A DNA stretch of 49,606 nt from Rhizaria sp. SCN 62-66 (taxonomy: Eukaryota), in the NCBI GenBank assembly GCA_001724265.1, contig MEDY01000215.1, forward strand, positions 1 to 49,606. Direction: 5' to 3'. Shown here one piece after another: positions 1-45,515 of the stretch. Numbering within the stretch: the first letter of the stretch is position 1; every line of letters starts with the position of its first letter. The notes under the pieces are model-generated. The model was not told the origin of the DNA and ran no database searches. It saw nothing but the letters and a program-made list of their open reading frames with translations. Made by a program: the position numbers and the translations under genes.

Positions 1-2087
1 GCCGCGGCCAGCTCGGCCTCGCTCGGCCGCGCCGCCTCGGCCGCGGCAGCAGCGGCAGAGCTCTCAGCCGCGGCCGCCTCAGCCGCGGCGGCGGCGAGCG
101 GACATGGCAGCCCGCGCGGACGGCTCAGGCGCGCCCAAGTCGACTCGCTGCGGCCGGCCGCGGCGGCGCGCGCCACGGCCAGCGCGGACGCAGCCTGGGC
201 GCTCGCGGCGGAGGCGGCCGCTGGGGACAGCGCGCCCGTGGCGGCCGCGGCGCGCGCAGTCTCGGCGGCGGCGGACGCGGCAGCAACCAAGGCGGCTGCG
301 GCAGCGGCGCGGGCCGCGCGGCGGCGGTTGCGCTCGGCCAGGAAAGACGTCGGCAGCGCGGCTTCGTGCCACGAAGACAGCAGCGAGCGCGCGCCCAGGC
401 TCCGCGGCTCAGGCTCCACATGCGCAGCCACGAAGTGGGCGCTCTGCTATTGCTGTTGCTGTTGTTGTTGCTGTTGTTGTGAGTCCGCAGCGTTGGCCTC
501 GACAAGCGCTGTCGACGCGGAGCCAGGCACGTGCTCGACCAGTGCAGTCTCCGCGGTCTCCGTCAACTGCACAGGCTCTGTTTTGCAATTCGCCTGTAAA
601 ACTGCTACACCATGCGCCGTGCCCTTGCTTGTCTTCGCATGAGCCGTGGCATTGCTGTTCGCATGAACCGTGGCGGCGTTGCCATTGAACCCATCGTAGC
701 GTGGACAGGCTGGGTCAGCCCGCATGCGTCGCAGTCGGTGCGGATCCATGTCGCGCGTGTACGTGTGCGCTACGGCGCGCGCGCGGGCCGGTAGCGACGG
801 CGGCGCAGTGCCAGACGCGGCGGCGACAGAGGACGGCAGCAGCAAGTGCGACTGCGCTAAAGACTGTGGCGAAGACTGAGACTGAGAAGACCGCGGCCGG
901 GACGCACGGCGGGCGGCTGGGGTAGACATATTCGGGGCAGTAGTAGCAGCGGACCCAGGCCTGTGTGCGTGCTTGGTCGTCGCGGAGTGCGCTGACTGCG
1001 TCGTTGACGCTGTTTGTGTTTGTGAAATGAGGGCAGCGCGGAGTAACACGCTGTCCGAGACTGGCCGCGACGGCGCTTGCGGCAGCGCCAACGCCGCGCG
1101 GCTGTGTGCACGCTGCGGCGGTGGCGGCAGCGCAATCCGCAGCAACTGGCGGCCGGGGCCAGTTGTTGCGGATGTGTTTGCGGCGGCAGCGGCGAGACGG
1201 CGGCCAACGCGCGCGGGCTGCAACTGCGGCGCACCGGAGCGGGGCCTGTTGTTACCGTGACCGGTACTTGCGGCTGCACCGCCGCCGTAGCCGAAGTCGT
1301 CGCCGTCGTCGGCAAAGTCCAAAAATGCGTCTAATGCCGCCTCCATGGCCGGATTTGCGCGGTTCGCTGGAGATGCAGTGTGTGACTGTGCAGGCTCTGT
1401 GGCTGCGGGCTCTGTTTCAGCTGATGCTTCTATTGCGGGCTCTGCTGTTTCGGGACTGAATGTGATATTTGCAGCCAAGTCAAAAACACCGCGAGAAGGG
1501 AATGCCTGACGGGGCGGGCTAGCTGAGGCCGGTTGTGGCGCGACAATAGGTGAGGAAATGCGTTCCTCATGTTCACGTTCAGGCTCAAGCAGCGATTGCA
1601 TAAGTGATGGAGATGCTGCAACTGGGATTGATGAAGCGGGAAGGGCGTGAAATAACTTTGGTGCGTCGGATAGCGCAGTTTGGCTTGCGGGCACTGGTTC
1701 GTAGGTTGTGTGCTGTTCTGTGTAAGTCGCTGAAGCAGTCTGCTTGTGCGCACGCGTCTCGTCGAAGTCTTCGAACGCGTCCTCTTCGTCATGCGCTGCA
1801 GCGGGCTGCATAGATGCGGCCAGACCGCCTGTCGCAAACTCGAACGTGGGCAAACGGGGTGTAGCTGAAAACTCATGTTGCACTGGAAACTCAGACGTCT
1901 GGCCGTCGGTGTAGGCGCTTGACTGAGTCTCAAGCAATTGAGCCGGAGGTGTGAAGGTCGAAGCGAGCTGTGGTTGCGGCTGCGCGTAGAAGTCTTGATG
2001 TGTCACGGTATAAAACGGTGCATTGGTTGCGTTCTCAAGCGGGGGTACATCCTCCTCGAACGCAAATGCGTCCGGGTCGAAGTCCAT
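1..2087 (-). CDS. Uncharacterised low-complexity (Ala/Pro/Ser/Gln-rich) protein, 3'-partial, with an in-frame TAG at 447-449 probably read as Gln
   Basis: ATG at 2087 (MDFDPDAFAFEEDV...). The ORF track stops at TAG 447-449, but this TAG lies in a CAA/CAG run (QQQQQQQQQQ*QSAHFVAAHVEPEPRSLG...). The same frame stays open with typical GC/Ala-rich codons for 148 more codons to the window edge. No recognisable domain. Confidence 0.7.
444..479 (-). repeat. CAA/CAG (poly-Gln) microsatellite containing one TAG
   Basis: Minus strand reads CAA CAA CAG CAA CAA CAA CAG CAA CAG CAA TAG CAG. Confidence 0.85.
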
Positions 2088-3289
2088 GCCGGCCAGGCAA
2101 CCTTTTAGCAGTGTTGCTTCGCTCAAGACAAGTGTGAAGCGGCGACTATGAAAATCAGGCATATCAGAAGACACTCGCAAATTGATAAAATATTATATAG
2201 TGACAGGTAACAAAATCATTCTCAAAATACAATATTATAGTGGCATGAGATATTGACGTTTTTGAAGGCTATAGTCGACTGCTTTATTTTGAGCAACCCC
2301 CAACGGTTATTCTCAGACACCGAGCCACAAGTGCAAGCGCAAATTTAGGCAGTATCACGTCTAGTTTCATGTCATCATGTTTCTTGGGCCTAAAAATCAA
2401 ATATAACTTCAAAACTTAAGGGATCTATACAATATTGTCTTCGTGTTTGATTTTATTGAATACAGCATGACTTATGTTTTAAAATATGTGTGTCCTCTCA
2501 AGTTTGTTTTGTTTCAATCGACTGTTTCAGTCAGTTTCACGCTCCAATATGCATTTCATTTTACAATAACTTAAACCTGGGTGTAATATCGTGTCTTGAC
2601 TTAGTATCATGCATTTATAAATATATCAGTAACTGAACCACCGTATGTGACTGTGAGCAAGTTAGAGTAACAGTATGCAACAACTTGAAACACGATGTAC
2701 ATGTATCCTCATGTTAAGCAACAGTATTCAAGCAAACTATTCTTCATCAAATTGAAACTGTAGATATTCCACAAATACAACAACGTCTTATAACGCTGCA
2801 AAGGCACGACAGTGAGACACACCAAAGAGTGAACGGTCGCGCTGTTGCCACGTTGCTGCCTCAGTCGCTGGTGAAGCGCAACTTGAAGCCCGACACGCAA
2901 GCAGGTGATATGCCGTGTACTTTCCGTTAACCAGCGCAGTTCTTTGTGTACAAATTTAATTTTTTGTTTTATACTTCTAACGTAAAAATTTCTTCCAACT
3001 GTGTATGTTCCGCCCTTCATTTGTAAAAGTAGCATCCCAAGCGATTGGGCTTTACGAGGTTGTTCGCCACCCTCGTGTTAAACAAACTTTTCAGCTTTGC
3101 TTAGTCATTGCTGCGTTTTCAAGCATTTCTGCAAGCACTTTCCCCTCCCATTCTACTCCTTGTAGCCCTTTTTTCTTCGCCGTGATCCATCATTGATCTC
3201 GCCGAAGCGTCTCTTCACAACTCACTTTAAGACACTGACAAGTCCACACTTACAAACTAAAACATCAATACTGATAAACAACAGCAACA

Positions 3290-4294
3290 ATGCAAACCTC
3301 TATCTGCAATTCCCTGCTAGCCGTGTTAATTCTTATCGCGGCCCTCACTGCCTCGCTCGCGTCCGCCACCGCGACCGCGGTCCCCGCTGCCGTTGCGCCC
3401 GCACTCGTGCCGACCGCGCCCACCGCCGCAGCAGTCTCCGCTGGCACTGCCTACACGCCCGAGCAGCTGCACGCGTACATCGCGCAGGGCACTCCCGAGC
3501 AGCAGCGCCTGGCCGCGACCGAGCTCGCGCGCCTCGGTCTCCCGCAGCTTCTGCTCTCCGCGACACACAGCGACGAGATGGTGCGCTACGAAGCCGTCAA
3601 CGCGCTCGGCGCGCTGGGCGACCCGCGAGCCGTGCGCGTGCTGCTGCGCGTGGCGCTCACCGACGGCTCACTCTACGCGCGCCACCGCGCCATCTGGGCG
3701 CTGGGCACGGTCGCGGCGCGCGACGCCGCGCTGGCGCGCACTGTGATGTCCGCACTGCAGCAGCTTCATCTGGCGCGCGAGGCGCCCGCGGCGGAGCGGT
3801 GGCGCGCCGTGCTGGCGCTGGGGCTGCTGGGCGACGAGAGCATGGGCCGCCACATCACGACGGTGCTGGCGCAGACCGAGGACGAGGCGACGGCGTGGGA
3901 AGGGCTTAACGCGCTCGCCACGACCCCGAGCGGTGACGCGGCGCAGGCGCTGCCGGCAATCTATCCGTACCTCACGCACGCCGCGCCGCGCGTGGCTGAG
4001 GCCGCGGTGCGCGCGCTGGCCAAGACGGCGGAGCGGCACAACAACAGCGCGCACACCGCCGCGCTCGCAGAGGGCACCGTTGTGGTCGAGGAGACAGAGC
4101 TTGGCCGCATTGCGCGCAAGGCTCTGGCCGCCGCCGCTGCCGTGCACCAGTGCCCGCAGGTGGCGCGCCGCGCGCGGTCGCTGGGCGAGGCGATGAAGGC
4201 GCGCAAGCTGGCGCAGAACGCGGAGCGCTCGGTGCGCCGAGGGGTGCTGCAGGCGGAACACAAGAGCCGCTTCAACCTTAAGTCGGAGCTGTGA
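3290..4294 (+). CDS. HEAT/PBS-lyase-like repeat protein with N-terminal signal peptide and C-terminal KSEL
   Basis: Single-exon 334 aa ORF, TGA stop. Hydrophobic N-terminus LLAVLILIAALTASLA. Repeats such as DEMVRYEAVNALGALGDPRAVRVLLRVA, ARHRAIWALG and RWRAVLALGLLGD resemble PBS-lyase HEAT repeats. Confidence 0.75.
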   Translation: MQTSICNSLLAVLILIAALTASLASATATAVPAAVAPALVPTAPTAAAVSAGTAYTPEQLHAYIAQGTPEQQRLAATELARLGLPQLLLSATHSDEMVRYEAVNALGALGDPRAVRVLLRVALTDGSLYARHRAIWALGTVAARDAALARTVMSALQQLHLAREAPAAERWRAVLALGLLGDESMGRHITTVLAQTEDEATAWEGLNALATTPSGDAAQALPAIYPYLTHAAPRVAEAAVRALAKTAERHNNSAHTAALAEGTVVVEETELGRIARKALAAAAAVHQCPQVARRARSLGEAMKARKLAQNAERSVRRGVLQAEHKSRFNLKSEL

Positions 4295-4848: not shown

Positions 4849-6016
4849 ATGTCAAGATCCGCCGAAGCCCACTGTGAGTTTCGTGCGGGCCGTGTTGCTG
4901 TGTCAGGTTAGTTTCTGTCTGCTCGAACATCTCTTCCCTCATGCCCCGCTTGATCGCCCCCGTCCTCATCCCTGACCGTTCACCTCTCTACTTACTTACT
5001 CCCCCGACCCAGCCGACGGTTCCGCGAGCCCCGACCCGCGCCGCGGCACACTCGCGATTGCCGCGGCCGAGAGCGGTGCGGTGATCGTTTCCTGGTCGCT
5101 GCGGCCCTCCGGCGAGCGCGTGTGGAGCGCCACCGTGCCCCGCGGCTCGATCGCGCTGTCGCAACGGCCCGAACACGCCGCCGCGCGCATTCTCGCGCTC
5201 GCCCCCACTGCGCCGACAACTGCTGCGGCCGAGGCCCCGCGCGAGGCGTTCTGGATGCAGGAGCCGGCGAAGAAGGGCGATGACGCCGCCGCGGCCACCG
5301 CCGCCGCTGACGCCGCCCTCGTCGCAGCCTTCAACCTCGTTGCCGGCGTCACCGCTGCAACTGCTGCGCCTGCACCTGCGCCTGCGCCTGCGCCTGCGCC
5401 CACTGCCTCTGCGACTGCGACTATTGCGGCGGCCCCTGTGACCGCGACTGCACCCGTTGCAGCTGCATCGGCACCCGCCCCTGCTGATGCTGCTGCTGCT
5501 GCTGCTTCTCCACCTGTGCCTGCTGTCAATGCCTCTGCTCCTGTCGCCGCCGCGCCCGCCGCCACGCCCGCCGCCGCGCCGACCGCTGCGTCCGCCGCGC
5601 CCGCGCCACTTGACCTGCGCGACGTGCTGTCCCGCCCCGTCGTCTCTGGCCCGCTGTCTCAGCTCTCCGAGGCCGCGACTGCGCCGTTGATGCCGCTCAT
5701 GCCCGCGGGCCAGCAGACTGCGCGCGCGCTCGCGGCGCAGCTGGCGCAGCCCAGCGCGTTCTCCGCCGCTGTTGACGCGCTCGCGGAGATTACCGCGGAC
5801 GCCGACGAGGGCGAGGCGCAGGAGCGGCGCTTCCGCGCGATGCTCGCTTCCGTGGGATTGGGCGCGCATGCCAACTTTACCAGCAACTTTGCGGGGGGCG
5901 CGCAGAACAAGAAGAGTGGGTTTGCGCGGCTGATCGAGGCGATTAAGGCCGATGTTGCGGCTGAGAAACGGAGAGCGGCGGCGGATGGAGCTGCCGCCGA
6001 GGCCGACAAAAAGTGA
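4849..6016 (+). CDS. RPN13: Proteasomal ubiquitin receptor RPN13/ADRM1 (exons 4849-4906, 5013-6016; about 353 aa; alternative ATG at 4840)
   Basis: Spliced product HCEFRAGRVAVS-ADGSASPDPRRGTL...VIVSWSLR...EAFWMQEP matches the Pru domain pattern (FRAG...PD.RKG...W...FFWMQEP). C-terminal region resembles the DEUBAD helices. Intron GTTAGT...CCAG keeps the frame. TGA stop. Confidence 0.85.
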
Positions 6017-23137: not shown

Positions 23138-23589
23138 TTAGGCCTTGGGGAGGCCGAGCTCGGCGCGGAGCTGGGCAACAAAGTCCTGGTCCGCGTCGTC
23201 GTCGTCCCAGTTGGTCGCCCAGAGCGCCTCAGTGGGCGTGTCGTCCTTGGCGTCCCAGTCTAAGCAAGAGAGCATAAAACGGTCAACAGTGAGGGAGGAG
23301 CTAGAGGCGAGCAGCGAAATGACATTGCAGAAAGAAGGGATAAAGACAACGCAAAATGTAAGGGGTAAGATACGTACTCTCAACAGGGAACTCCTCGAAC
23401 TCGTCCTCGCAGTCGACATCCTCGACCTGGGGAACGGGGGAATAAAGGGGAAAGAGGGGTGGTCAGCATCATCTCAAAAGGTTCGGGAGACAGGAAAAGT
23501 AGACAGTGTCAGGAGGCATCAAGGTTGAGTAAAACGCGTACCTTATTCGCCTTGGCGTTAATGTTATCGATATCCTTCATATCAGACAT
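23138..23589 (-). CDS. SEM1: 26S proteasome subunit SEM1/DSS1 (exons 23589-23542, 23426-23378, 23259-23138; 72 aa)
   Basis: Spliced protein MSDMKDIDNINAKANK-VEDVDCEDEFEEFPVE-NWDAKDDTPTEALWATNWDDDDADQDFVAQLRAEL has the DSS1 motifs DEFEEFP.E.W and W..NWDDD...DF..QLR.EL. Two GT-AG introns keep the frame. TAA stop. Confidence 0.95.
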
Positions 23590-23923: not shown

Positions 23924-26900
23924 TCACTGGAGCGTGAGACAGTCGAGCCCGTCAGGGAAATACGCATCACCGAACGTCAGCGCGGCGAACGACACCACAA
24001 GCGCGGCATACCCCGCGGCGACGGGCCCGGACACCGGCAGCGAGTACACCGCGTAGTCGACCACCGCGCACAGCGGACCGATGAGCAGCGACCCGGCGGC
24101 GACGGCGGCGGGCGACGCCACAAACGTCGCCAGCGCCACCAGCGCGTTGTGCAGCACGTCCGCGGCGCACGCGAGCAGCAGCAGCGGGAGCTCCCTGCGG
24201 CCGGGCAGCTGGAACGTCTCCAGCCCGGTGGCGTGCAGGAGCCCCATCACTGGCCACAGCATCAGCGCCGTGCACAGCCCCAGCGCGCCCAGGAACAGCA
24301 GCGCCTCGGCCGCCTCCTGCGCGGGCACCTCGAGCGCCGCCGCGGGCAGCCGCCAGACCAGAGTCGCCGCCGCGCGCGCGCGCCGCCGCGCCGGGGAGAG
24401 ACCGAGCTCAGCGTCGCAGGACGCGCCCGATTCCTCCGCCACATGCTCGTCATCGTCGTCGTCATCGCCGTTGTTGTGGCTGAGGCCGGAGTTGCCGGCG
24501 GAGGCGGCGGCGCCCGCCAGAGCCGCGGGGGGACGCACGCGCACCATCGACGGGGCGCCCACGCGCGCGCCAGTCGCCGGCGACGCATTCGGCCGCGCAC
24601 TCGCACTCACAGTGCTCGGGCGCGCACTGGCGGCCTGGTAGTCGAGGTCGAGGGCGGCGTTGTCGGAGCTGTCGTCGTCGACGTCGACGATGGGGCCACG
24701 GCGCATCGCCTCTGCGCGGTTGCGCGGCACGGGCTGGCGCGCGCTCCTGTGGTTTCCCCCGCTGTGCGCATGCCCATGCTCATCATGACCGTGACCGTGA
24801 CCGTGAGTGGGCCCGTGGTTGCGGCGGACGAGGGGCAGCGCGTCGTAATCCGCGCGCTCGTTGAGGTCCGCGTTCGTGCCCAGAGTCTGGTCCACCGAAA
24901 GCTGTAACAGCGCAAAGAACGCCGCCGCCAGCGCAGCCAGCGCGGCGCCCCACAGCGCCACGCGGTGCGTGAACGCGCGCGGCTCGGTGAAAGCGCCGAT
25001 GAACCGGCGCGCGAGCGTCCACGGCGCGTCGGGCGCGCCGGCGACGACGGTGACGACGCCGACTGCGGCGGCGGCGACGGCAACGAGCGCCCACCGCGAC
25101 GGCGCGCGGCCCAGCAGCAGCGCCGCGAACACCGCGCCCCACGCCGGCTCCGACAGCACGACGGACGCGTTGACCGTGAGCGTGGTGGTGGCGAGCGATG
25201 AGAACCAGAGCCAGGAGCACAGCGCCGAGAGCGGCGACAGCAGCGCGGCTGTGCGGACGATGTGTGCGGCGCGGCGCAGGAGACCGGGGGTCGGGTTGCC
25301 GCGCGCCCACGATAGCCACACAAGCGCGAGCGGCGCGGCGGCCGCGGCGGAGAGGTAGCCGACAAAAAAGGGCTGGTCGTACTGCTTCGCCACAAGCAGC
25401 TTCTGCACCGAGAACATCTGCCCTGCCCACGCCGCGACGAACAGCAGCACGGCACCCGCGGCGACGAGCTCCGCGCGTCCGCAGAGTGGCGCACGGAGAG
25501 CAGGCGCGCGGCGGCGGCGCACGCCCACCGCGGCCGCCGTCAGCAGCAGCGCGTCGCCGTCTTCGTCTTCGCTGTCGACATACTCGTCGCCACCGTCATT
25601 CTGGTGGCCACCGAAGCGGCGCGTAGCACTCTCGCGGTGCGCGCGCCGGTTGCTGCGGCCCTTGCGGCCTGTGTTGCTACCGCGGTCGCCGCCGTTGCCA
25701 CCGGCGCCGCCATGGGACTCGAAGGGGTCCAACAGCTGGTACGGCTGCTCCCCGCCACCGCTCAGCCGCGGCGCACCCGCAGCCCCCGCAGCCGCCGCAG
25801 ACGCAGCAGCCGCAGACGCAGTAACGGGCGGTCCGGCGCCCGCAGCGGCAGCGGCGGCGGCGATCGCAGCCTCGATGTCGGCCGGCAGCGCCGCCGCAGC
25901 GGACCGCGATGATGATGCTGATGATGCTGATGCTGTCGCAGCAGAGGCGGGCACGACAGTGAGCGCGACAGCGGCGGGGCGCGTCAGAGTCGACGCGCGC
26001 AGAGCGGCAAGCGCGGCGGCGGCGAGCGCGGCGGGCGTCGCCGCGGGGGGCGCGCAGTAGACCGGCGCATCGCCCAGCAGCGCCGCCGCCAGCGCCAGCG
26101 ACGGCGCACCCGCAGTCGACACGGACAGCTCCGACGCTGAGAGCGCTGAGGAAGCCGACGCTGACGCTACGCCAGTGGCGGTGGCGGTGGCGGCTCCGTC
26201 TGCATGCGTGCCCTCGACGGGGGCCACCGCGGCAGCGGCTGCTCCGGTTGCGACCGCGAGCGAGGGCGTCAGCGTGACCGAGTGATCCGCGTCGCTGCTG
26301 CTGCTGCAGTTGAGAGCGGCGAGAGCGGCGTCGACAGCTGCGAGCGCGGCGGCGGGCGCGCCGGGCTGCCAGCCGAGCACGGGCACCGCGCGCGCGGGCG
26401 AGAGCTGCGCGGTGAACGCCGACAGCGCGGCCGCGTCCGCCGCGGACAGCGCCGCCGCGGCCTCGGGGCCAGCCACGGTCGCGCTGCCGAGCACGACCAC
26501 CAGCGGCACTCCAGTGAACCCGGCGTTCCCAGTGTTTCCAGTCCGGCTTGCGCCGGTGTGCGCAGATGCGGCTGGCACGAGGGGCACGGCCGACGATGAC
26601 GCAGCAGCAGCAGCAGCAGCAGCAGTGGCATAGGCAGAGGCAGAGGCCGTCGTCGCAGTGCCGGCAGCGGTGGTGGCCGCAGCTGCAGTGGCAGCGGCGG
26701 AGTGCGGAAGCGAGGCGGAGAGCGCGCCGCAAACGAACGGCGCGAGACGCTGCCGCAGCACGGCCAGCTGCGGGGCCAGCGGGCGCCGCACGTCCAACAG
26801 CAACAACATCACGGCCGCCGCAGCATTACCAGCCGCTGCATTAGGAGCAGCAGCAGCAGCAGCAGCGCAGGAAGAGCTCTGCGTGAGATGTGCGGCGGCG

Positions 26901-27964
26901 GCCAGGGCCTCGGCCTCGGCAGCAGAGGCCGTGCGGCGCGGGGCACGCGCGGGTGCGAGTGCGGGGGACAGCGGCGCTGGCGTTAACAGCGCGGCGGGCG
27001 ATGATGAGGACACAGTGGCGGACCCAGTGGCGGGCACAGTCGCGGGCACAGTCGCGGTCAGCGGCGCGGCGGGCGCGAGCAGCTGCACGGTAACGCCGGC
27101 ACGCGGGCATAACACGAGCGCAATAGGCGCGCGCGTGCGCACCGTGGCCTCGGGCGCCGCGGCGGCGGCGAAGTCAGCCGCGAAGGCCACGGAGTGCTCG
27201 GAGTTGGCGGGCGCAGAAGCGAGGAACGACGTGCCCGCTGCTGTTGTCGCGCTACTCCCCGTGGCAGAGTCGGCGGAAAAACACAGGACGGACTTGGTGC
27301 CCGCGGCGAAGCTCAGCGGGGCGAGCGAGGGTGCGCTAGCGGCGACGGCGGAGAGGTACGACAACGGGTCTGCGAGCGAGAGCAGTGCGGCAGCGACGCG
27401 GCGGATGGCGACGCGGCACTGTGTGTCCAGCGTCTGGGCCGGGCCCTGCAAACGCATGATCTCCTGCACCGCGGCCGAGATAGACACGTCGACGGAGTCG
27501 CGCACAGCGCTGATGCGCGCGCGGGCGGCCGCGTAGCTGGACGCGTCGTAGAGCAGTGCGACGAGGTCGCGCTCGTAGGCAGTCATTGCGTCCTCTGAGG
27601 CGAAGGTAGACAGAACAGACTCCAAGGCGCGCGAGACAGCAACAAGCGCCTTGCTCAAGTTCGCAGCACGCCTCGCCTGGGCTTCCTCAACGCGTTCTGT
27701 GCGAGCCGAAGCGCTAGTTTCGTCTGCCTTCGGATAAGCATGCTGCAAGGCGAGCAGCACCAAATCTACGAATAATAACGGCGACAATGAGGCGAAAAAC
27801 GGGGTGTTGTGGTTAAACATGGGTTGTGACGTCAGTGTTGTTAACATCACCATAACGAATTTTCAACTATCGTTTATTTAAGAGCACGTACCTTCGGCAG
27901 AGGGAATGATGGAGCTTGGTTCACGCAGAACCAGGCCAGCTGGTTTGGCATCGACAGTACTCAT
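23924..27964 (-). CDS. Fusion protein: degenerate NOG1/GTPBP4-like N-terminal half plus SLC35F-like (DMT/EamA) transporter C-terminal half (exons 27964-27892, 27765-23924; about 1304 aa)
   Basis: N-terminal segments align by eye with NOG1 (IIPSAEDLVLLAL; YERDLVALLYDASSY; AEAEALAAAAHL). The C-terminal half has about 10 hydrophobic segments with QYDQPFFVGYLS, LWFSSLATTTLTVNASVVLSEPAW and LHATGLETFQLP, typical of SLC35F-type transporters. Intron GTACGT...TAG. TGA stop. Confidence 0.75.
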
Positions 27965-28399: not shown

Positions 28400-31300
28400 T
28401 TACTTGTGCTTGCCCTTGCCAAAACCGAAGAAGCGGCCGACAGTTTTAGCTGCGCTGGTAATGTGACCCTTAACATTGTCAACCTTTTCTTCAAACCAGT
28501 CGCGCAGCAGTGCGCCCGACGCGCGGCCGAATAGACGAGCAATGCGCTGCGCACGCGCCTGCGAGAGCATCTGCCAGTCCGAGCCAGTCATAACCCTGCC
28601 GAAGACCTCGGAGTAAATGACTTCGACGTCGATGGGCGCCAGCTCGACGGGGATCGCACGCGCAACCTCCCAGAACTGGTCTGCGACGTCCTTATCGTCC
28701 CACGAAGGGTCGTTCACGCGCGCGGCCGCCGTGACGCCGCGGATCATCATGCGCATCTCGTCGTTGCGCAGCGGCGTCCTGAGGAACGCAGGTGCAACCT
28801 CAACAGCAGTGGCGAACTCGTGCTCAATCAGCTCCACCACGTCGGGCAGCTCGGACATGTCCGGCGGTGGCGGCGTGGCCACCAGGAACTGCTCCAGTCC
28901 GCTGTGCACAAACAGCGAGGGCCGCATCGGCGCCTGCAGCACGCGCTCGGCCACCATCGCCAGCGTCAGACTGCCGCGCGCGCCGCGCCCCGGCGCGCGC
29001 ACAGTCACGCGTCGCACCGTCAGCGCCGTCGCCGGCACGGCCGCAGCAGACGAGGACGCAGTCGCGCTCGCAGTCCCAGCCCCAGTCCCACTCGCACTCG
29101 CGCTCGCGGCAGCCGCAGACGCTGCGTTGCGTGACGCGGCGCGCGGGCCGTAGACCGCAGCCAAAATGCCATTCGGACGAATCGGAGCGGGTCCCTCAGG
29201 AGCCACGGGAGTCGCACAGCTGGCAGCATCATCGGCAGCGGCGGACGCAGTGTCAGGGCTCGCCTCCTTCGCCGCTTGGTGCTCCTTGGCCACGGCGCTG
29301 TGGACGGCGCTGGCGAGCTTCTCTGCCACCTTCCCAACCACAGCCTCGTGCCGGCGACGCGCGTAACCGCGGATAGCCTCCACCTTGCTGGCCGGCAGCG
29401 CGCGCGAGTGCACGAGCGCGCCGACGTCGTCCATAGCCGTGGGCACGCCCGTGGTGTCGCTGAGAAAGCGGTCCACGCTGCGCGCCGCGGCCGCCAGCGC
29501 GCCGTGTGCCATGCGTTCCATCACAGCGCACGCAGCGGCGTCGAGCGGCGCGTCAGCCACCACGCCCGTGCCGTGAACCAGTGCCGTGCCGCGCGGCGAG
29601 CGCAGCGCGGGCACGCCCAGCGCCAGGTCCCACTGGCACGGCGACGGCGGCTCGGGATCCAGCGTGCGCTCCCGCAGTCCGTACGCGCCGTAGCCGGGCG
29701 CGGCGCGCGCGCAGCCCTGCCAGCCGTCCGTCTCCTCGGGCCACAAGTGGCCCTGCATGTAGGCGGCCTGCACGCGCGCAACAGGTGCCTGGCAGCAGGG
29801 CCGCTGGAAGCCGCTGGCGTCCTCAACGACCTCGCACGCGCCGCAGGTCGGTACGCGCGAGGCAAAGGGGCCGTACGTCTGAGCGAAAAGCCGCGTGACG
29901 TTGCGCCACGGCGCCGCGTTGGCCGGGTCGGCGTTGAATGTCGCAAAGATCGACGGCTTCTCCAGCCAGACTGCGCGGCCCGAGCGCGAGGCCGTGTACT
30001 CAGCCAGCGCGGCCTCTGTCTCGGCCTCACTGGGCGGAGTGCGGTCCGCCACGTCGATGCCGCCGTCAGACTCGTCGCCGCTGTCCTCGCGCTCGCGCTC
30101 GCGTGCGCGCTCGCGCTCGAGCTCCTGCTCGAGCGCGCGGCGCTCCTGCTGCCGCTGAAGCTCGCGCTCAGCCTCGGTCGGCGCCGCGGGCCGCGTGCGG
30201 TGCCCGCGCACTGCGACTTCGGCGGACGACGCGGGCCGCCGCGTCGACGCCGGCAGCGGCTCAAGCCCGCTCTTGGTCACCGGCGACGACGACGACGACG
30301 ACGAAGACTGAGGTGACGATGAAGTTGCAGCCGGAGCAGACACGCTGTCAGGCTCGGTGCCGGTGCTGAGGCGCGAGGGCGCGGTAGCGGCGGCGCCTAC
30401 TGCGGCCTCGAGACGGCCGTAGAGCCGGATGTCGCGGCGGCGCTGGTCGTTCCAGCGAGCGAATTCAAGCCGCGCCTGCACAGCGGCCTCGTCCCAGGCC
30501 GCGAGCGCAACACGTGACAGCGGCGCCGCAGGGTCAGTCACGTCGACGCCGTCGAGTGCGCGGCGCGCAGCCGGGTAGCCGTCGGTGAGGTAGAGCATGT
30601 CGGCCTCGGTCAGTGCGGGCACCACGTCGTACGCCATCTCGATCATCGACAACAGACGCGCGTCGGTGAACAGGTACACTGCATAACAAGATAACATAGA
30701 ATCCAAGACATACCACCGAATAATGTTAGAATGTTAGAAACACACGCTACCAATCTATTTTAAAAAAAAAAATCAAAAAAAATCGCGATTGCAATTATGA
30801 CAAGACACAGAGATGAAATAATCACTCTATTCGTACCTGTGCGGACGGCGACCTCAGAGTCGTCGGCGGTGTCGCGGAGAACCTGCTGACCGTCGCGGCC
30901 GGGGACACGGATCTCGGCCTGCGTCTCAACTGTGCGCCGCAGCGCGTGCGCAACGCAGAGCGCCTGCTCGAAGCCCTCAGTGAGCACGCTCGACGGCCGC
31001 GGCGGCGACGGCGAATCGGGTGACACGCACGTTGCGCGGTGCAGCTCGTTCAGCAGCGTGCTCTCGGACACATCGAACGCTACATACACAAACAAAAACA
31101 AAAACACAATTGAAGACAATAAGAAGCAAATAAAAATCAAAAGTGAGACGAGCCTCAAACTTATCGGAAACATTAAATGATACGTGTTTTGTCAATAAAA
31201 GCTGAAACTGTGTGAGACACGACAAACGTACCCTTGCGATAGGCTGCGTTGATGCGCGAGACGACTGGCGCGCGGCCGCCCAGTACGAGCTGTGGCGCCT

Positions 31301-33305
31301 CTTCGCTCTCGCGCAGCGCCCACCGGCGCTCGGACGCGGCCGCGCGGGCAGCAGTCGCGGCGGACGCGGTGGCCGCAGCGGCGGCCGCAGCAGCGGCAAC
31401 AGTGAGCCTCGGAGGAGACGCAGACGCTGACGTAGCTGCGGGCGTAGCAGGCGTCACAGGCGAAGATGCGGCCGCAGGCGCAGCGGCGGGCGCCACCGTA
31501 GATGCGAACGCAGGTGCGGTCGCAGACGTAGACTCTGTAGATTCAGACGCAGGCGTAGACACGGGTGCAACAGCGGCCACCGCGACAGTGTGCGCAACGA
31601 CGGGCTTAACAGCGTCACCATCGTAGCTGTCGAGGTCGAGCCCCAGCGACTGGAGCAGCGCGGCGAACCCGTGATCATTGGCCGCAGCGGCGCGGGCCGC
31701 GGCGGCGGGCGAGGCAAATACTCCAGCCGTGGGCGTCGCTGCCGCAGGCGCAGCAGCAGCTGCTGCAGCAGGGGCAGCGGCAGCAGCAGGCGCAGTGGCA
31801 GCGCCAGCGTTGGTGGCGGCGGACGAGTCTGGAGCCACAGTCTCAGGCGCTGACACAGACTCGGACTGAGGCGCAGCAACAAAGCTGGCATCGGCAGCCT
31901 GCACATCGTCCTTAATGGCCTCCGTAGTCTGTGTCGCTTCCGCGGCCTCTGCCACAGCAGCGGTCTCGGCAGCGGCAGCGGCGGCCTGCGCTACGGTCTC
32001 AGCGGCGGCCGCGGCCTAAGCAGCAGCAGCAGCAGCAGCGGCGGCGGTGGTGGCCTGTGTAACAGCCTCGGAGTGCGCCGAGGCGGCAGCGGCCGCTGCT
32101 GCGGCGGTGCCCTGGACCGATGCGGCGGCGGGCCGGAGCAGCAGCGGCGCGTCGGGCGGTGTGGACATAGCCTCGGTGGCGCACGCCGCATAGTACGCAG
32201 GCGTGAGATGAGAGGACGCAAAAAGCAAGAAATTGTTGTCCGAGAGCAGCCGCGGCGAGACAAATGTGTCCGCGGCTAAGTCGTGCCCCGACACGGGCTC
32301 ACCAAAGAAAGACAGCGCGCCGCGCGCCTCGGCGGCCGCGGTGGCGGGAGGCGGGGGCGCGAGGTGCGAAACAACGGCGTGCGGCCGACGGAACGCGAAA
32401 AGCTGATCGACCAGCGGCAGCTCCGTGGGGTCCTTGCCAAGCGGCAGCACGAATACCTCAACGTGGCCGTGGCGCATGTAGCGCGCGCGCAGCGGCAGCG
32501 CGCTACGGTACTCGTCTGGTATGGCCGCGAAGCGCGGAGGCGGGTAGTTTGTGAAGAGCCGCGACTGAGGGTCCGCTGTACGCTGCGCAAACAGCGAGAG
32601 CGCGTCCCAGTCCGCCGGCGCGGCCGCGGGCGCGGTCGTCGCCACGGGCGGGCCGTACACGACCTTGTTCTGCAGGCGCGCGAGCAGCAGCGGGTCCGGC
32701 GAGCCTGCGACACAGGCCACGGGGCCCGATGAGACGTGGTGCATCGCAATCCCATCGCCCGCGCGCGCATTGTCGCCCAGCATCGCGGGCGCCTCGGCTG
32801 CCGTCGCGGGCGCAATCGTGCGCGCGGGCTGTGCCCAGTCGGGGTACAGCGCCAGCGATGGCGAACGGTGCGGCGTCGCGGGCCCGTAGGCCGACAGCGC
32901 AGTGAGCAGGTACGACGTCCGCACCAGGTGTGATGTGCCAGACAGAACGATCTCGTGCAGCGGCAGCGCGTTCTGCGGGATCTCGTCACCCGCGGCGGCC
33001 GGGTCTGTACCGGTCGCCGCAGCGTCAGAAACGGCTGCAGGAGCAGATGCAGAAGCTTCGGACGTTGAAGCAGATGCTGCAGTGATGGTGGAAGCGCTGA
33101 AAGGCACAGGATTCGCGGACTATGACTTGAAAGAGTCGGTTTGTTGTGCTGTTGTAAAGCTACGGATGTGCTGTGTAGTCCGCAAGAGACCAGGCGTCTG
33201 TTGTGTCAGAGGCCGTTGCGGTTGGCGTGGCATCGCTAATGCGATATGAGGCGCAAGCAGGAGCATGCCAGCCCTGGAAGCAACTCGCCGGCGACAGACA
33301 AACAT
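28400..33305 (-). CDS. Large uncharacterised, probably mitochondrion-targeted protein (exons 33305-31232, 31079-30837, 30678-28400; about 1531 aa) with two in-frame TAG codons (33120-33122, 32016-32018)
   Basis: ORFs 33120..33305, 32016..33107 and 31173..31955 are all in one frame, separated only by single TAG codons. Two GTACG...AG introns join it in frame to ORF 28400..30706. Total exon length 4596 nt is divisible by 3. Arg-rich N-terminus with almost no acidic residues, MFVCRRRVASRAG...HIRSFTT, looks like a mitochondrial presequence. TAA stop. Confidence 0.72.
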
Positions 33306-33901
33306 CGCCCGGGTTGGCTGGAAGGTAAAACACAGAAGTAAACGAGGTATTAGTCGTGGTCATGGTCTTATATCGACCAAGTAGGCCTTATGTGCCTCGC
33401 TAAACCCTTTGTCTCGGAGCATTGAGGTAATCTCTTCACTCTGTGCCCTGTCAGCACATTATTCCGGGAATTGAACAGCAAGATCTTACTACAATGAAAT
33501 GTAATTTAAAGATATAAAGTTTCACAAAGATTTAAAGCAAATTCCGCCAAGATATTCCCTATACAACGATGGCTCCTATCAGTCCCAATTGTGCTGACAA
33601 GTCCAACCGCTGACCCCCAAGACCAAACCACTGGAGCATGGCAAGCAGAAACGTCACTCTCGTATGAACATTGGGATATGTATGCTTAGGTGAAGTCGTG
33701 TACATATAAAATCGCAGTATCATAAATATTCGTAGATAGGGTATACGAAAAACGTGTTAGAAGCGTTGCCTAGATTTGTTCGTGTATCATAATTCGGCAG
33801 TTACATAGTTTAATCCACTCAACGCGCATCAACATGGTCGCCAAACACAACCGAGTTGTGCGGCGTATGTATGAGCCATGTTCTCGTCGCCGTTAAAGCA
33901 T

Positions 33902-35911: not shown

Positions 35912-38900
35912 TCATGACCAGCATTCGAGGATGTAGCGCCCCGCCGTAACCATCTCCGCAATGCGCGCCTGCGCGTCCTGCTCCGTCCCGCCCGCGAGCG
36001 CGGCCACGAGCGCGGCGAGCGCTGCACGGACGTCGCGCGGCATCTGCTTAGCGCTGCCAGCGATCACCACGGTCCCGCGCGGCGACGCCACCGTGGAGTA
36101 GGCAGCGCGCGCAACAGCCCCGCGCGTCAGTCGGTGTTGCACGTACCGGTCCGCGCGCAGCACGCGCTCTTCCGCGGCCACCTCCGCCACTGCGGCGTCA
36201 ATACCAGCCCTCTCTGCCTCGGCAGTGTTCACTGCGGCGTTCTGCGAGGTGACAGCACTGTTGCCGCCGGTGCCGGTGCTACTCGCGGTGGTGCTACTCG
36301 CGGCGGCGTTACTCGCAGTGCTGCTTCCGAGTCCGTTGTTGCGCGAAAAGCACGCCTCGTAACGCTCGAGCGCGCCGAAGCGGACCGCAACGGTAAAAAA
36401 GTCCCTGTAAAAGTGGTCCGTGGCGGCGCCCTGGCAGCCGAAGAGCAAGCGCAGCGGCGCAAGCCCCGCCAGCGAGGCCAGCTGCGCCGCCGTGTCCGCC
36501 ACCGTGTCCGCCGCCAGCGTGGCCCCGGTCGCCAGCGCGGGTGCAGGCGACAGCGCGACGGCAAGGCGCGGCCACGACGCCGACGACGCACCCAACACCA
36601 GTGCGTTCTCGCTCCCGCTCCCGCTCCCGTCTGCGGTTTGCAGGGTGCGCAGTGCGGCGGGGGCGAGCGCGGCGAATACCTCGTCCGTCCACTCGGGGTC
36701 CTCGGCGGCGAGCCCTTCGCGCGCGAGCAGTGTGTGAAGCCGCCGGAGCACCGCGCAGAGCCGCTGCTGCGTGAGCGCGAGCAGCGCGGCGACGCCCGTG
36801 CCAGGGCCCAGCGCAGTCATCTCGGCGTCCTGCGGGAGAGCGCCCATCACGCCGCGCTTGACGCGCACCCACGCGCGCGCGCACCCGCCCTCGGCCGCGC
36901 CGTCCGCGACCGCGAAGGCAGAGGCAAGGAAGCTGGTGCAGAGCCCGCGCTTGAGGCGCTTGAACGGCGTGCGGAACTCGACCGCGGACACGCACAGGTG
37001 CGCCTCGGCAACGGCCACGCCCGCGGCGAACCCGGGGGCCGTGCTCACGCCCGCGGCGGCCGCGTCGGCGGCCTCGGCGGCGTCGAGCGCGGGCACCGAG
37101 CAGAGCAGCGCGCGGAGCTCCTCGGCCGTGGCGGGCAGCGGCAGCGGTGCGGCGGGGAACGATGAAGGTGGCCACAGTGCGCCGCGCGCGGGAGGCGGCG
37201 GCGGCGGCGCGTGGAGCGGGAAGTGGCGCGCGTAGGGCGAGCGCAGGAATGCCGACGATGACGCGATCGAGTATGATCGCGGCGCAATGCGCGGGATCAG
37301 CTCTATCAAAACGCAGCATAGACGTATAGAACAAAGAACAGTTGATGTGAGACAAATATAATTTTCATAGAGACACAACATTACCAAATCATGACAACAA
37401 CACAACATGTGTCAATCAGAGAAAGCACAAAACATATTGCGCAGGTCAAGCACGTACCGACGGCGGCGCTGAGCGGAAGCGTGACGCCCGGGAAGTCATC
37501 GAGCACTTCGGTGAAAGTGCGACGCTCGCGTGCGCAGTAGCGGTCAAGCTCTGCGGCCCATGCCAGCGATGTCAACTCTTCCAGACGCTCGCGCTCGTGC
37601 GCGGCAGATGTACACTGTGTGAAAGAGTAAAGATTGATGTCAGCGATGTCAAGAAAAACAATTAAAAAAAATGCGTGGATGACAACAAACTTTGACCGGA
37701 TAAAACAACAGTATGAAACATTATGATCTCAGATTGCGTGGAATGCGTACCTCTCGCAGAACATCAAAGAAGCTGCGTTGCGGTGATGCGGCCAGGTCAA
37801 GGTACCACGTCGCCAGTTCCCAGGCCGCCGCACGCCGCGGAAGCCCCACAGTGTCTTCGCTGCCGCCGCGCGCCGCCAGCTCCAGCGCCGCGTCTTCCCC
37901 CGTGAAGGCAGCGTCGGTGGCGGCGTCGCGGTCGGGGATAGGGTCGATGCAGAGGATGTCGTCGGGGCGCAGCTTCATGCGGCGCAGGAACGCGGCGACG
38001 GCGGCGTCGCAGTTGGGCGCCAGTACTTCAAGCACGTCACCGGCTGCGTATCCCGCGCTCAGCCGCGCCTGCGCACCGCACAGCCACGGCGCCTGCTGCT
38101 GCTGCGTCGTCGCCGCACTAGGGGCACTCCCCACGGCAACGGCGCTGACGCTGGCAGGGGTGGGCAGAGCGGCGGAGAGATCAAAGCGGAGGTGGCGCAC
38201 GTCTTTGCCGCGCAGCCGCGGCGGCGCAAGCTTGCGCAGACCTTCCGCCGTCGTCACAACACCCGCACCTGTCGCAGAATTGGTCCCAGTGGCCGTGGCC
38301 GTCGCCGCGGCCGTGGCTGTAGCTGTGGCTGCGGCGGTGACTGAGCCAGCGGGGTCTGCGGTGACGCGCGCGTTAGCGCTGATGCGGGCCGGGAACGGCA
38401 CTCCTTCGCGCTCGGCCTCTGTCTCCCCCGCCGTCTCACGAAGGAGGCCCTGCGCGCTGGCGCTGCCGTCGCGGTCCGCGGCCCACTGCGCGCGCCACGC
38501 CTCCACAGTCTCCACAGCAACAGCACCTGTTCCAGATGCAACTGCGAGTGTGCGGGCGCGGGGTCGCCAGCGCCGCAGCCAGCGAGCGAGCGTAGCGTCG
38601 ACCGCCCAGTCGGCGCCGCCGGTGCGCGCTTCGGGCGCGAGGACGCCGCCGCACTGCAGCGCCGCAAGCGCGTAAGTCGGCGCCACGCCCACCAGCTCCG
38701 GCGCCGCGCCAGCGCTCGCGGCAGTCAAAGCAGCGGCCGCAGCAGCAGAAGCGGCCTGACTGGCGGTATCGGCGGCCAAGTCCCCAGAGGCTGGCTCTAA
38801 GTGCACTAGCAGCGCGGGAACAGAGGCATCAGCACTGGCAGCCTCAGCGTCAGTCTCGCAAGAGTCAGCGTCTGTCATGGCTGAGTTGGCGTTACAGTGA

Positions 38901-39817
38901 GGAAAAAGACGGGCGCCGGCCGCGGCGCGCTGCAGCAGTGCGGCTGAGGGACAGAAGTAGCCCCCAGCCGCAGTCGCAGTCGCCGCAGGCGCAGTGGCAG
39001 TCGTTGTCGTCGGAGCCTCGGCGCTAGAAGCAGAACACTGCATGAGCGCCGCGTCGAGCACTGCGGTAAGAGCGGCGACCTCAGCGGCCACGGCGGCACG
39101 GGTGGCGCGCGCGGCGGCCAGGGGCACCACGCGCACTGACACCTGCGGACAGCTCAGCCACGAGTCGCCAGACGCAGCGCCCGCCGCAGCAGCGTCAGCG
39201 GCAGTGACTGGGGAGGCCGCGAGAACTGAGCGGAGGCCCGCGAGGAGGTCGACGGTCCAGGGAATAAGCGCACCGTCGTAGCCGATAGCGTGCTGGTCGT
39301 CGCCAAGCCCCTGCGGACAGAGCGCGCGCGCACCGAGAGCCAGCAGACGCTGGTGCAGGCGTCGCGCGACTGCGTTGTAGAGCGGGTACGACGAGTCGCC
39401 CAGCCCGAAAGTGGAGAAGCTGAGTCCCGCGAGCGAGGTCGCGGCCAGGTCGCTGCGGCGCAGAAAACGCCAAAAGGCGCGCATGTTCTCAGGGACCTCG
39501 CCCTGGCCGGTGGTGGAGCAGACGAAGATGGCGGCCCGTGTCGTTGGCAGCGCCGCGATCGGGAACGAGTCCATGGGGCACACGCGCGTCACATACCCGG
39601 CACTGAAAGCAAAACACAGGACGGCATAGAAAGAAACGAGATAAGTGTGATTATGTTGTTATTTAAGATTCTGAAGTTGATGTGACCTGGTGGAGCGGTG
39701 AACGTACCGACGAGACTCCCTTGCAAGTCGTTTGGCCACTGCACGAGAGCATCCCGATTGCGAGCCATACAGGATAACCAACTCTGAGGATTTCTCAGAA
39801 TTACTTTCTTCAAACAT
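35912..39817 (-). CDS. NDOR1: NADPH-dependent diflavin oxidoreductase 1 (Tah18/NDOR1); exons 39817-39708, 39602-37751, 37614-37458, 37302-35912; about 1169 aa
   Basis: Flavodoxin motifs LVILYGSQSG, VCSTTGQGEVPENMRAFWRFL, FGLGDSSYPLYN and GLGDDQH. FAD domain PRSYSIASS and GLCTSFL. NADP domain GPGTGVA, IAGSAKQMPRDVR and C-terminal YILECWS. Three GT-AG introns give 3510 nt. TGA stop. Confidence 0.93.
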
Positions 39818-43100: not shown

Positions 43101-43963
43101 ACCCCGTAGCGCCGCGCGAGGCCGGTGCGCCGCTTAAGCTGGCCGCCGGCGAGCGCGCCGCGGTCGATCCCGTCGCCGCCGACGACGCGCTGCGCCGCGC
43201 GCAGGAGGTGCTGGACGACCGCGCGGCGGATAAGGCGCGCCGGCTCGCGCAGATCCGCAGCAAGGTCTCCGCCGCGGCCGCCGCGGCCGACGGCGACGCA
43301 CTGGACGCCGACGTCGCTCTCGAGGACGGCGAGTACGCCGCTGCTGCTGTTGATGCACAGTCCAAGGCCAAGTCAAAGTCAAAGTCCGCGAAGGAGCCCG
43401 CGCTGAACGAGGCGGAGCTCGCGGAGCGGAGCGTGTTTCCCCTTGGCGCGGGCGCCGACGACGTTGTGTTACCGCGCGAAGGCAGCGTTCGCGACCGCAA
43501 AGCCGTGCTGCGCGCGCTCGCCGACGCCGAAGCGTTGGCCGTGGAGGCGCTCGACGCCCGCGAGCGCGCACGGCAGGTGCAGGATCACAGCGCGCGGCTG
43601 CAGCGCAACGCCGAACGCGTGCTTGACCCGCGTGCTGATGATCCGACGGTGCGCAAAGCGAGCGCGTTCGAAGGGCCCGGCACGTTTGTGCCGCTGCTGC
43701 GGGAGGCGGCCGGGTCGCAGCAGGCGCTGGCGCACGAGCGCGTGTTTCTTAAGCCCGCCGTGTCGTCGACGCTGATCGACCCGGCGCGGACGATCGAGGC
43801 CGAGGAGACGGCGCCGCCCGCCTGGCATGCTGGTGCGCAGTCGGCGTGGGACGAGTACCACAAAGACCAGCTTACCAGTCGTCTCCGCGCGCGCCTCCAG
43901 GAACAGCTTGCTGACCTCGAGGCGGACGACGAGGACGGCGACGGCGGGTTTGACCGCCACTGA
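40198..43963 (+). CDS. RNA-binding protein with two RRM domains, possible mitochondrial presequence (exons 40198-40297, 40464-43963; about 1199 aa)
   Basis: Exon 1 MMSLAKAERVASHIRTTASGRAVSKVISSAAAY, intron GTACGT...CAG. RNP2/RNP1-like motifs KVFVTNIPP...HAYVYFAT and SITLFGL...NTGACYIHFYTHADASAAFRALNG. TGA stop. Confidence 0.75.
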
Positions 43964-44407: not shown

Positions 44408-45515
44408 ATGGAAATGTACGTCCCTCGCCCCACTCTTTGACCCGACCTATCCGTACCACCTCTTTGCCATCGGCTCGCTTCCCATGAGGTTTTCTTCGCA
44501 AATGTTGCTTGCTCACTTCACACTCGCGCCTGTTATTTGCTTGTATAGCCTTGGTGTTGACGGCTTCCTCTCCGACTACGAGGTTTTCGAGGCGCTCAAC
44601 TCGGCCAACTTCGCGGCCACACCCGAGTTCTCTGACCTCGACTCGCGCCTGCACTCTGTGACGCGCAACATCGACCAGCTGCGCCGCAACCTGCGCAACG
44701 TGCCCGGTGCGACGTTGCCGAACGGGCGGCCCGTGCGCCCGCTGTCAGAGGACCAGCGCCGTCACATGGAGGCCGAGCTTGTGCACGCCACACAACAGCA
44801 GCAGCGCCTGCAACGCGCTGAGGACCTCGCGTGGATCCGCTCCCAGACGCTCAAGTACCTCAGCCACGCGCCGGGCTCCACGCAGTCGGTCGAGCACGTG
44901 CGCGGCTTCTTCACCAAGCTGGCTGCGCTGCAGAAAGAGCACCGATTTGAGCTCATGGCGCATGAGGCGCTGCAGCTCGTCAATCTGCGCCCCACCACCG
45001 CTATCGAGATGCACACCATCGTCGAGCAGTTTACCGAGGTACACACTTGCTCAGACATCTTCAATGCTTCAAAATTATTTATATATGGTATCTATTCGTA
45101 TTGTGATTTGACTCTTTGTTTCTCACCGACATCTTTGGTTTCATAACTCTATTCTTGTTCATTGCTCTTTTAGCGTCTGCGCACGGAGGCCGCGCGCGCC
45201 GCGCTTGAGGCACTGGTGCTGGAGGCGCTGCCCGAGCCGCCGCTCAGAGAGGACGCCGCGAGCGAGGAAGCCGCGGCCGCCGCCGCCGCCGCTGCGGCCG
45301 CCGCGGGCGACTCCTCCTCAGCCGCTGGCGCGGGTAGCGCGGACGCTGACGCCGACGGTGACAGCGAAGTCGAGGACCACGACGCTGCGCTCCACGCGCT
45401 CGCGGACTCGGACGAGCAGCACCGCGCCATGCGCGACGAAGTCGATTTCTCCACCGACGCGCGCGCGCAGGTTGACGCCGAGACCGACGGGCAGCCCGCT
45501 GCCGGAGACGACTGA
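44408..45515 (+). CDS. RPC9: RNA polymerase III subunit RPC9/C17 (CRCP); exons 44408-44415, 44549-45038, 45174-45515; 279 aa
   Basis: Spliced N-terminus MEILGVDGFLSDYEVFEAL matches the Rpc17/CRCP LSNYEV motif. TLKYL motif and HRDC-like LMAHEALQLVNLRPTTAIEMHTIVEQFTE-RL. 8-nt first coding exon. TGA stop. Confidence 0.88.

Follow-up and report, generated by a model that had tools for sequence, protein, structure and literature searches.

Introduction

Nuclear genetic codes that separate UAG from UAA have, according to excerpts of three sources (PMC5304391; PMC11687900; PMC10553269), been described in only a handful of lineages: a single fornicate, a single rhizarian and some ciliates. The fornicate Iotanema spirale (Fornicata) reads UAG as glutamine (Gln) and keeps UAA and UGA as stops (PMC5304391, in part). 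The ciliates Hartmannula sinica and Trochilia petrani likewise decode UAG as Gln, and uncultivated phyllopharyngean ciliates decode it as leucine (Leu) (PMC11687900, in part). The rhizarian, Rhizaria sp. exLh (Sainouroidea), uses UAG for Leu, with 384 in-frame UAG codons in 71 genes, situated at conserved Leu positions, and with 56 UAA and 15 UGA as terminators and no others (PMC5304391, in part). Here, we analysed a stretch of 49,606 nucleotides (nt), contig MEDY01000215.1 of Rhizaria sp. SCN 62-66 (assembly GCA_001724265.1), called the window for simplicity, in which three TAG codons stand in frame within two genes: TAG1 and TAG2 in a three-exon gene (gene H) and TAG3 in a partial gene (gene A). 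All three lie in coding sequence that continues in frame, and UAA and UGA terminate genes in the window. UAG thus probably specifies an amino acid in this organism, most likely Gln, as in NCBI table 15 (TAG = Gln, with UAA and UGA terminating).

Each of the described systems shares part of this picture, as far as the excerpted sources portray them. Iotanema, Hartmannula and Trochilia resemble the host of the window in that UAG alone has acquired a sense meaning and UAA ends more genes than any other codon (7 of 13 gene ends in the host), and Gln is also the likeliest residue in the host. Unlike them, the host belongs to the supergroup Rhizaria by its clathrin tree, has a GC-rich genome and uses UAG very rarely and outside conserved domains; in ciliates the reassigned UAG is in wide use (PMC11687900), and genes with several in-frame UAGs are shown in PMC5304391. 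The host has in common with exLh that both are rhizarian, that UAG is sense and that UAA and UGA are the only terminators seen. In exLh, however, UAG occupies conserved Leu positions, whereas the window holds three UAGs in about 14 genes, in Gln-like contexts. The exLh trait of frequent UAG at conserved Leu is therefore absent from the host (3 of 12,389 codons, none of them in clathrin or in the E2 subunit of pyruvate dehydrogenase, PDH E2). The phyllopharyngean UAG=Leu codes are likewise UAG-only, likewise known from environmental assemblies and likewise accompanied by UAA as the preferred stop, but their owners are ciliates, a group in which suppressor tRNAs were found (PMC11687900). In the ambiguous codes of Condylostoma, karyorelicts and Blastocrithidia a stop codon can be read as sense within a coding sequence (CDS), as in the host; there the same codon also ends genes, in contrast to the absence of TAG terminators in the window (0 of 13). 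The literature outside subscription journals, which were not covered, yielded no report of a UAG=Gln code in a cercozoan, a sainouroid or any rhizarian, and nothing beyond PMC5304391. If real, the code of the window would be of a known kind in a new lineage, and unusual in the rarity of the reassigned codon.

Results

Two TAG codons within a spliced and conserved gene

On the minus strand, the frame that runs from the ATG at 33305 to the exon end at 31232 contains exactly two stops, both of them TAG (33120-33122 and 32016-32018), just as the initial annotation had described this exon. The joined CDS of gene H comprises three exons and 4596 nt, a multiple of three (1531 codons followed by TAA), with zero frameshifts and zero in-frame TAA or TGA, so that residues 62 and 430 are its only internal stops. 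The end of exon 1, which had been proposed from the letters of the DNA, was borne out by a contig of run X6 that joins 31232 to 31079 and leaves out 152 nt with the minus-strand termini GT..AG (the run comes from an RNA-Seq/cDNA library although it is labelled 'RNA? probably DNA'). A second X6 contig ends at 30837, which is the inferred donor of intron 2; no contig spliced across intron 2 was present among those aligned to the window. The introns seen or modelled in the window (45040-45173 on the plus strand, 31080-31231 and 30679-30836 on the minus strand) are AT-rich and 134-158 nt long; all begin with GTAC, and a pyrimidine-rich tract precedes the final AG. The third-position GC content (GC3) of exon 3 is 0.81.

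A HMMER search with exon 1, in which TAG was read as Q, against 1.84 billion representative sequences gave four matches: gene H's own fragment of 363 amino acids (aa; P0097), P0098, P0099 and P0100. The fragment corresponds exactly to the stretch between TAG1 and TAG2. A single open reading frame (ORF) each encodes P0099 (1450 aa), P0100 (1008 aa) and P0101 (1523 aa), the last of which clusters with P0099. Along P0099/P0101 and P0100, the N-domain that precedes TAG2, the LVLAGR..YR motif (3' end of exon 1), exon 2 and exon 3 find their counterparts in this order; in P0098 one ORF holds both the N-domain and the motif. Exon 3 is 68% identical to P0099/P0101 over 56 residues, with E 6e-23 for an alignment of 88 residues. 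Since these single-ORF homologues are colinear with gene H on both sides of TAG2, this codon lies inside a variable linker of one conserved polypeptide. Gene H is a real, spliced, conserved gene. A word-based homologue search with exon 1 returned nothing, the 8000 candidates having been filled by low-complexity words.

The family to which gene H belongs is known only from environmental sequences; its proteins are about 1500 aa long, with a presequence-like N-terminus and no Pfam domain. The ORF of P0098 appears to continue into intron sequence where gene H has its own intron, at AYR(K/R)|G, which suggests, from comparison of the two sequences, that this intron site is conserved between them.

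Downstream of TAG2 more than 340 codons pass without an in-frame Met before exon 3 is reached, so that a restart of translation there is impossible. A codon model trained on eight genes of the window ranked the same frame best on either side of TAG2, and likewise on either side of TAG3. For TAG1, the start at ATG 33305 was inferred from the agreement in N-terminal length with P0101 (an extension of ~117 aa in gene H and ~113 aa in P0101); no in-frame ATG occurs between TAG1 and the conserved block that begins near residue 113, and TAG1 is followed by 50 Met-free codons up to this block. At the DNA level, the initial annotation had noted a parallel between TAG2 and a nearby CAG. This parallel is present: TAG GCC GCG GCC GCC GCT GAG ACC resembles CAG GCC GCC GCT GCC GCT GCC GAG ACC, the CAG standing 10 codons 3' of TAG2, in similar A-rich ..ET.. 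segments. It is nevertheless weak, because Tandem Repeats Finder reported only the (GCT)7 run abutting TAG2 and a 6-nt repeat, and no long-period repeat.

A third TAG in a poly-Gln run

TAG3 had also been pointed out initially, and its place in a poly-Gln run was verified. The surrounding 12-codon run reads CAA CAA CAG CAA CAA CAA CAG CAA CAG CAA TAG CAG. Beyond TAG3 the frame has 148 further codons up to the edge of the window, and no stop. This part has a GC3 of 0.84, and the codon model prefers the same frame; neither a Met nor an AT-rich spacer occurs in it. Over its 720 codons gene A shows no frameshift and no TAA or TGA. A search for homologues of gene A recovered only its own fragment of 571 aa (P0115), which ends at TAG3; the support for TAG3 consists of the same-frame coding signal.

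Gene ends and codon statistics

Thirteen complete 3' ends were modelled in the window: those of the HEAT-repeat, Rpn13-like, Vps51-like, CXC, clathrin, SEM1-like, EamA, gene H, thiolase, diflavin reductase, RRM, Rpb4-like and PDH E2 genes. The terminator was TAA in seven, TGA in six and TAG in none, which upholds the earlier statement that no gene in the window ends in TAG. The end of PDH E2 is anchored by homology at the C-terminus, those of the thiolase and the diflavin reductase by the extent of their domains. After each of the 13 terminators the GC content drops to 0.35-0.63 and the in-frame codon score turns negative; after all three TAGs the GC content is 0.63-0.75 and the codon score is still positive. 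The nucleotides directly 3' of the three TAGs differ (TAG T, TAG G and TAG C). When stops with coding signal on both sides were sought by means of thresholds, the criterion proved too strict and no stop was returned; per-site scoring was used instead. A TAG at 45649, at the end of an ORF at 45112-45651, was considered as a terminator and rejected, as this frame is non-coding and the Rpb4-like gene stops at the TGA at 45513.

Across the 12,389 modelled codons there is no in-frame TAA or TGA, and TAG occurs three times, in 2 of ~14 genes. If UAG encodes Gln, it makes up ~0.7% of the Gln codons. All three TAGs are situated in disordered, low-complexity or unalignable parts of the proteins, in keeping with the earlier remark that TAG is rare and confined to poorly conserved regions.

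The window is composed of GC-rich blocks (60-77% GC) that alternate with AT-richer spacers. At 60-75% GC wrong frames are long as well, for example a 1640-codon ORF antisense to clathrin, and an open frame alone is therefore weak evidence. Accordingly, only part of the initial argument from the intact long frame stood: openness means little at this composition, and it is homology, splicing and codon statistics that raise the in-frame TAGs above chance.

Recurrence of the TAG codons in other assemblies

TAG1 lies within a 751-nt contig of run X4 (32526-33276, 0 differences), which belongs to a study other than the probable source of the window. P0097 and P0115, the protein fragments that end at TAG2 and TAG3, occur on five and seven contigs, respectively, and no longer allele is present in the cluster of either. 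TAG-bearing alleles were found in assemblies from runs dated 2015 to 2025. Positions 32005-32057, which include TAG2, were skipped as repeat in the contig alignment. A scan of metagenome contigs with exon 3 gave one identical contig of 1610 nt (~29800-31410), which covers neither TAG. The window contains no eRF1 gene.

The host organism

Near-identical copies of the stretch occur in runs from bioreactors, wastewater and activated sludge, which belong to several studies and date from 2015 to 2025. Among named sequences, none exceeds 53% identity to its clathrin heavy chain: the nearest are from Paulinella (51%), Mataza (49%) and Leptophrys (48%), and the 53% match is labelled as a euglenid transcriptome. 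Environmental clathrins reach 91%, 68%, 62% and 58% identity. In a FastTree tree of clathrin (73 sequences, 1655 columns) the window falls into a clade with Leptophrys, Paulinella and Mataza with a support of 1.0, and its own subclade consists of environmental sequences only; the tree is that of a single gene, with a biased taxon set whose matches were chosen by word sharing. This placement points to a probably rhizarian (Cercozoa-like) host, from a clade that the occurrence data suggest is typical of bioreactor and wastewater systems. No named sainouroid clathrin was among the clathrin matches, and scans of genome contigs and viral contigs with clathrin found no relative. The clathrin is only ~43% identical to fungal, choanoflagellate and Blastocystis sequences among the matches, so the host lineage is fast-evolving or deep-branching.

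Other features of the window

Positions of the features are collected in Table 1. The clathrin heavy chain gene (16590-21902, minus strand) is a single intron-free ORF of 1770 codons with a GC3 of 0.90, and the 1640-codon frame antisense to it is an artefact of codon bias. The minus-strand ORFs 37721-39658 (flavodoxin and partial FAD binding) and 35912-37411 (with ..RSYSIASS.. and the end ..ECWS) are apparently one gene (35912-39658), split by introns, with a small exon near 37400-37600; it would encode a putative diflavin reductase of the NDOR1/Tah18 type. The small acidic gene (23138-23473, minus strand; ..EDEFEEFPVE.. / ..WATNWDDDDADQDFVAQLRAELG..) has two exons and a TAA end; by eye it resembles the proteasome subunit SEM1/DSS1. 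Most proteins of the window contain very long low-complexity inserts rich in Ala, Ser and Thr (GCN repeats), e.g. at 24000-27800, 31300-32150 and 8000-11000. These inserts swamp word-based homology searches and attract unrelated metagenome contigs in the contig alignment.

Table 1. Features of gene H and gene A and modelled gene ends in the window.
Feature	Positions	Strand	Remarks
TAG1	33120..33122	-	Codon 62 of gene H, near the N-terminus (presequence-like or linker)
TAG2	32016..32018	-	Codon 430 of gene H; Ala-rich linker, directly 3' of the (GCT)7 run
TAG3	447..449	-	Inside the CAA/CAG poly-Gln run of gene A
Gene H exon 1	31232..33305	-	691 codons + 1 base, from ATG 33305; 3' boundary fixed by spliced contig
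Gene H intron 1	31080..31231	-	152 nt, GT..AG, AT-rich; spliced contig of run X6
Gene H exon 2	30837..31079	-	243 nt; read from the sequence, aligns with homologues
Gene H intron 2	30679..30836	-	158 nt, inferred; GTACGA..GCAG boundaries restore the frame into exon 3
Gene H exon 3	28400..30678	-	Ends in TAA (28400-28402); homology to P0099/P0101 and P0100
Gene A, partial	3..2162	-	3' end past the window edge; orphan protein with TAG3
HEAT-repeat gene TGA	4292..4294	+	ORF end and composition drop
Rpn13-like gene TGA	6014..6016	+	ORF end and composition drop
Vps51/Exo84-like gene TAA	11622..11624	+	ORF end and composition drop
CXC (tesmin/TSO1) gene TAA	15791..15793	+	ORF end and composition drop
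Clathrin heavy chain TAA	16590..16592	-	ORF end and composition drop
Small acidic gene TAA	23138..23140	-	ORF/exon model and composition drop
EamA-domain gene TGA	23924..23926	-	ORF end and composition drop
Thiolase-like gene TAA	33902..33904	-	Domain extent and composition drop
Diflavin reductase TGA	35912..35914	-	Flavodoxin and FAD domains, ends ..ECWS
RRM gene TGA	43961..43963	+	ORF end and composition drop
Rpb4-like gene TGA	45513..45515	+	Last exon 45174-45515
PDH E2 TAA	48008..48010	+	C-terminal residue aligned to that of solved PDH E2 chains; GC and score drop

Discussion

Several observations weigh against UAG being a sense codon in this organism. Only three TAG codons were found. They are spread over two genes, and none of them occupies a conserved position that can be aligned; in the comparison with the homologues, TAG1 and TAG2 belong to linker columns without a reliable alignment. 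The conserved genes of the window, e.g. those for clathrin (1770 codons) and PDH E2, contain no TAG. TAG1 is less secure than TAG2, as the coding signal 5' of it is weak in the codon model. The 13 gene ends without TAG are a small sample, in which 6 to 8 ends are placed by the end of the ORF and the composition drop alone. Initially, it had also been argued that only TAG interrupts the frames; this argument was dropped as non-discriminating, since from the codon usage (CAG 360, GAG 521, AAG 286, TCG 287 etc.) ~70% of random single-base nonsense mutations would yield TAG, and under this mutation model the probability that three of three stops are TAG is ~0.35. The poly-Gln run and the CAG parallel show an origin from CAG, but a nonsense mutation would share such an origin, and nonsense changes of CAG to TAG would likewise be found in Gln-rich surroundings. 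Among the contigs aligned to the window none from RNA covers either TAG of gene H (none is present at 32650-33500), and the window contains 0 tRNA genes.

If TAG were an ordinary stop, genes H and A would be young pseudogenes or carry fixed nonsense alleles whose downstream parts have not yet decayed. We consider this unlikely, even though the nonsense spectrum favours TAG (~70%), C-to-T nonsense mutations are to be expected in just such CAG-rich contexts, no homologues of the orphan gene A turned up and every TAG lies in a poorly constrained region. Three nonsense hits would be needed in 2 of ~14 genes, and yet no frameshift and no TAA or TGA has appeared in 1531 + 720 codons despite their slippage-prone repeats. 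Neutral decay that produces two nonsense hits should also produce frameshifts, as inferred from general indel-to-substitution ratios rather than computed. Moreover, codon bias is kept 3' of the TAGs, a spliced contig is available for gene H, itself a member of a conserved family, the same alleles recur in runs from 2015 to 2025, and the lack of TAG among 13 terminators would be left unexplained. Programmed or leaky readthrough by a near-cognate tRNA, with UAG still a stop genome-wide, would account for the extreme rarity of in-frame TAG (3 in 12,389 codons) and its restriction to disordered regions, and TAG3 is followed by C and by a CAG codon, a context of the leaky kind. It would, however, take two such events in one essential-looking CDS of 1531 codons, multiplying the loss of product, at sites of which the three share no common downstream context, and no gene ends in TAG (0/13); we regard it as quite improbable.

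That the TAGs are removed from the message or are not in the genome at all appears very improbable. Every TAG ends in AG, and frame-preserving GT..AG segments of 48 nt and 57 nt end at TAG2 and TAG3, respectively, which would allow for short in-frame introns (U-to-C editing would have the same effect). Both segments are rich in GC, do not reach half the length of the 134-158-nt introns and lack a GTAC donor, and for TAG1 the two donor/acceptor combinations tried from ATG 33305 break the frame. Assembly errors might be suspected at TAG2, which adjoins the (GCT)7 run skipped as repeat in the contig alignment, but TAG1 is identical in an independent contig and the TAG-bounded fragments occur on 5 and 7 contigs. 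A variant of UAG as sense, in which it stands for another amino acid, e.g. Leu as in exLh, is rather unlikely: the host is a rhizarian by the clathrin tree, the only described rhizarian reassignment of UAG is to Leu (PMC5304391, in part) and nothing in the window fixes the residue; on the other side, the poly-Gln and CAG contexts fit Gln best, UAG is rare here compared with its abundance in exLh, and clathrin, with its many Leu codons, has no TAG, nor does any TAG occur at an alignable Leu column.

Taken together, we favour UAG as a sense codon, probably for Gln, next to UAA and UGA as stops. This is the code that the initial annotation had put forward. Its observational part holds, namely that the TAGs lie in intact CDS and that 13 of 13 ends are TAA or TGA; that the residue is Gln is likely only from context, the sites being of low complexity. 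No TAG occupies an alignable conserved position, and the points for Gln are that TAG3 is one transition away from CAG within a poly-Gln run and that TAG2 parallels a CAG. Moreover, reassigned UAR codons most often come to mean Gln. To read UAG, the organism would use either a CUA-anticodon tRNA, whose ancestor was probably tRNA-Gln CUG, or efficient near-cognate decoding, and its eRF1 would recognise UAG poorly.

A tentative extension, which we hold to be possible but doubtful, is that the reassignment has only recently begun, in a rhizarian that lives freely: UAG would be gone as a terminator and would newly return as a rare Gln codon, to date solely at places where CAG-to-TAG transitions hit unconstrained poly-Gln, poly-Ala or presequence segments. 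An independent origin of the UAG reassignment in this lineage, as suggested initially, is plausible.

Gene callers that use the standard code split proteins of the host at TAG, so that of gene H's exon 1 only a piece of 363 aa is in the database, and gene A is represented there by 571 aa. Eukaryotes binned from metagenomes of this sort would be mis-annotated in the same way. If UAG is indeed a sense codon here, an abundant and uncultured single-celled rhizarian of wastewater would provide a further independent data point on the escape of UAG from eRF1. An early-stage reassignment, if true, would be a second, independent UAG change within Rhizaria and would show, in nature, the codon-capture or ambiguous-intermediate phase, which models of code evolution postulate but which is rarely seen, and if UAG is truly rare and young, the organism would offer a system to study the code transition itself.

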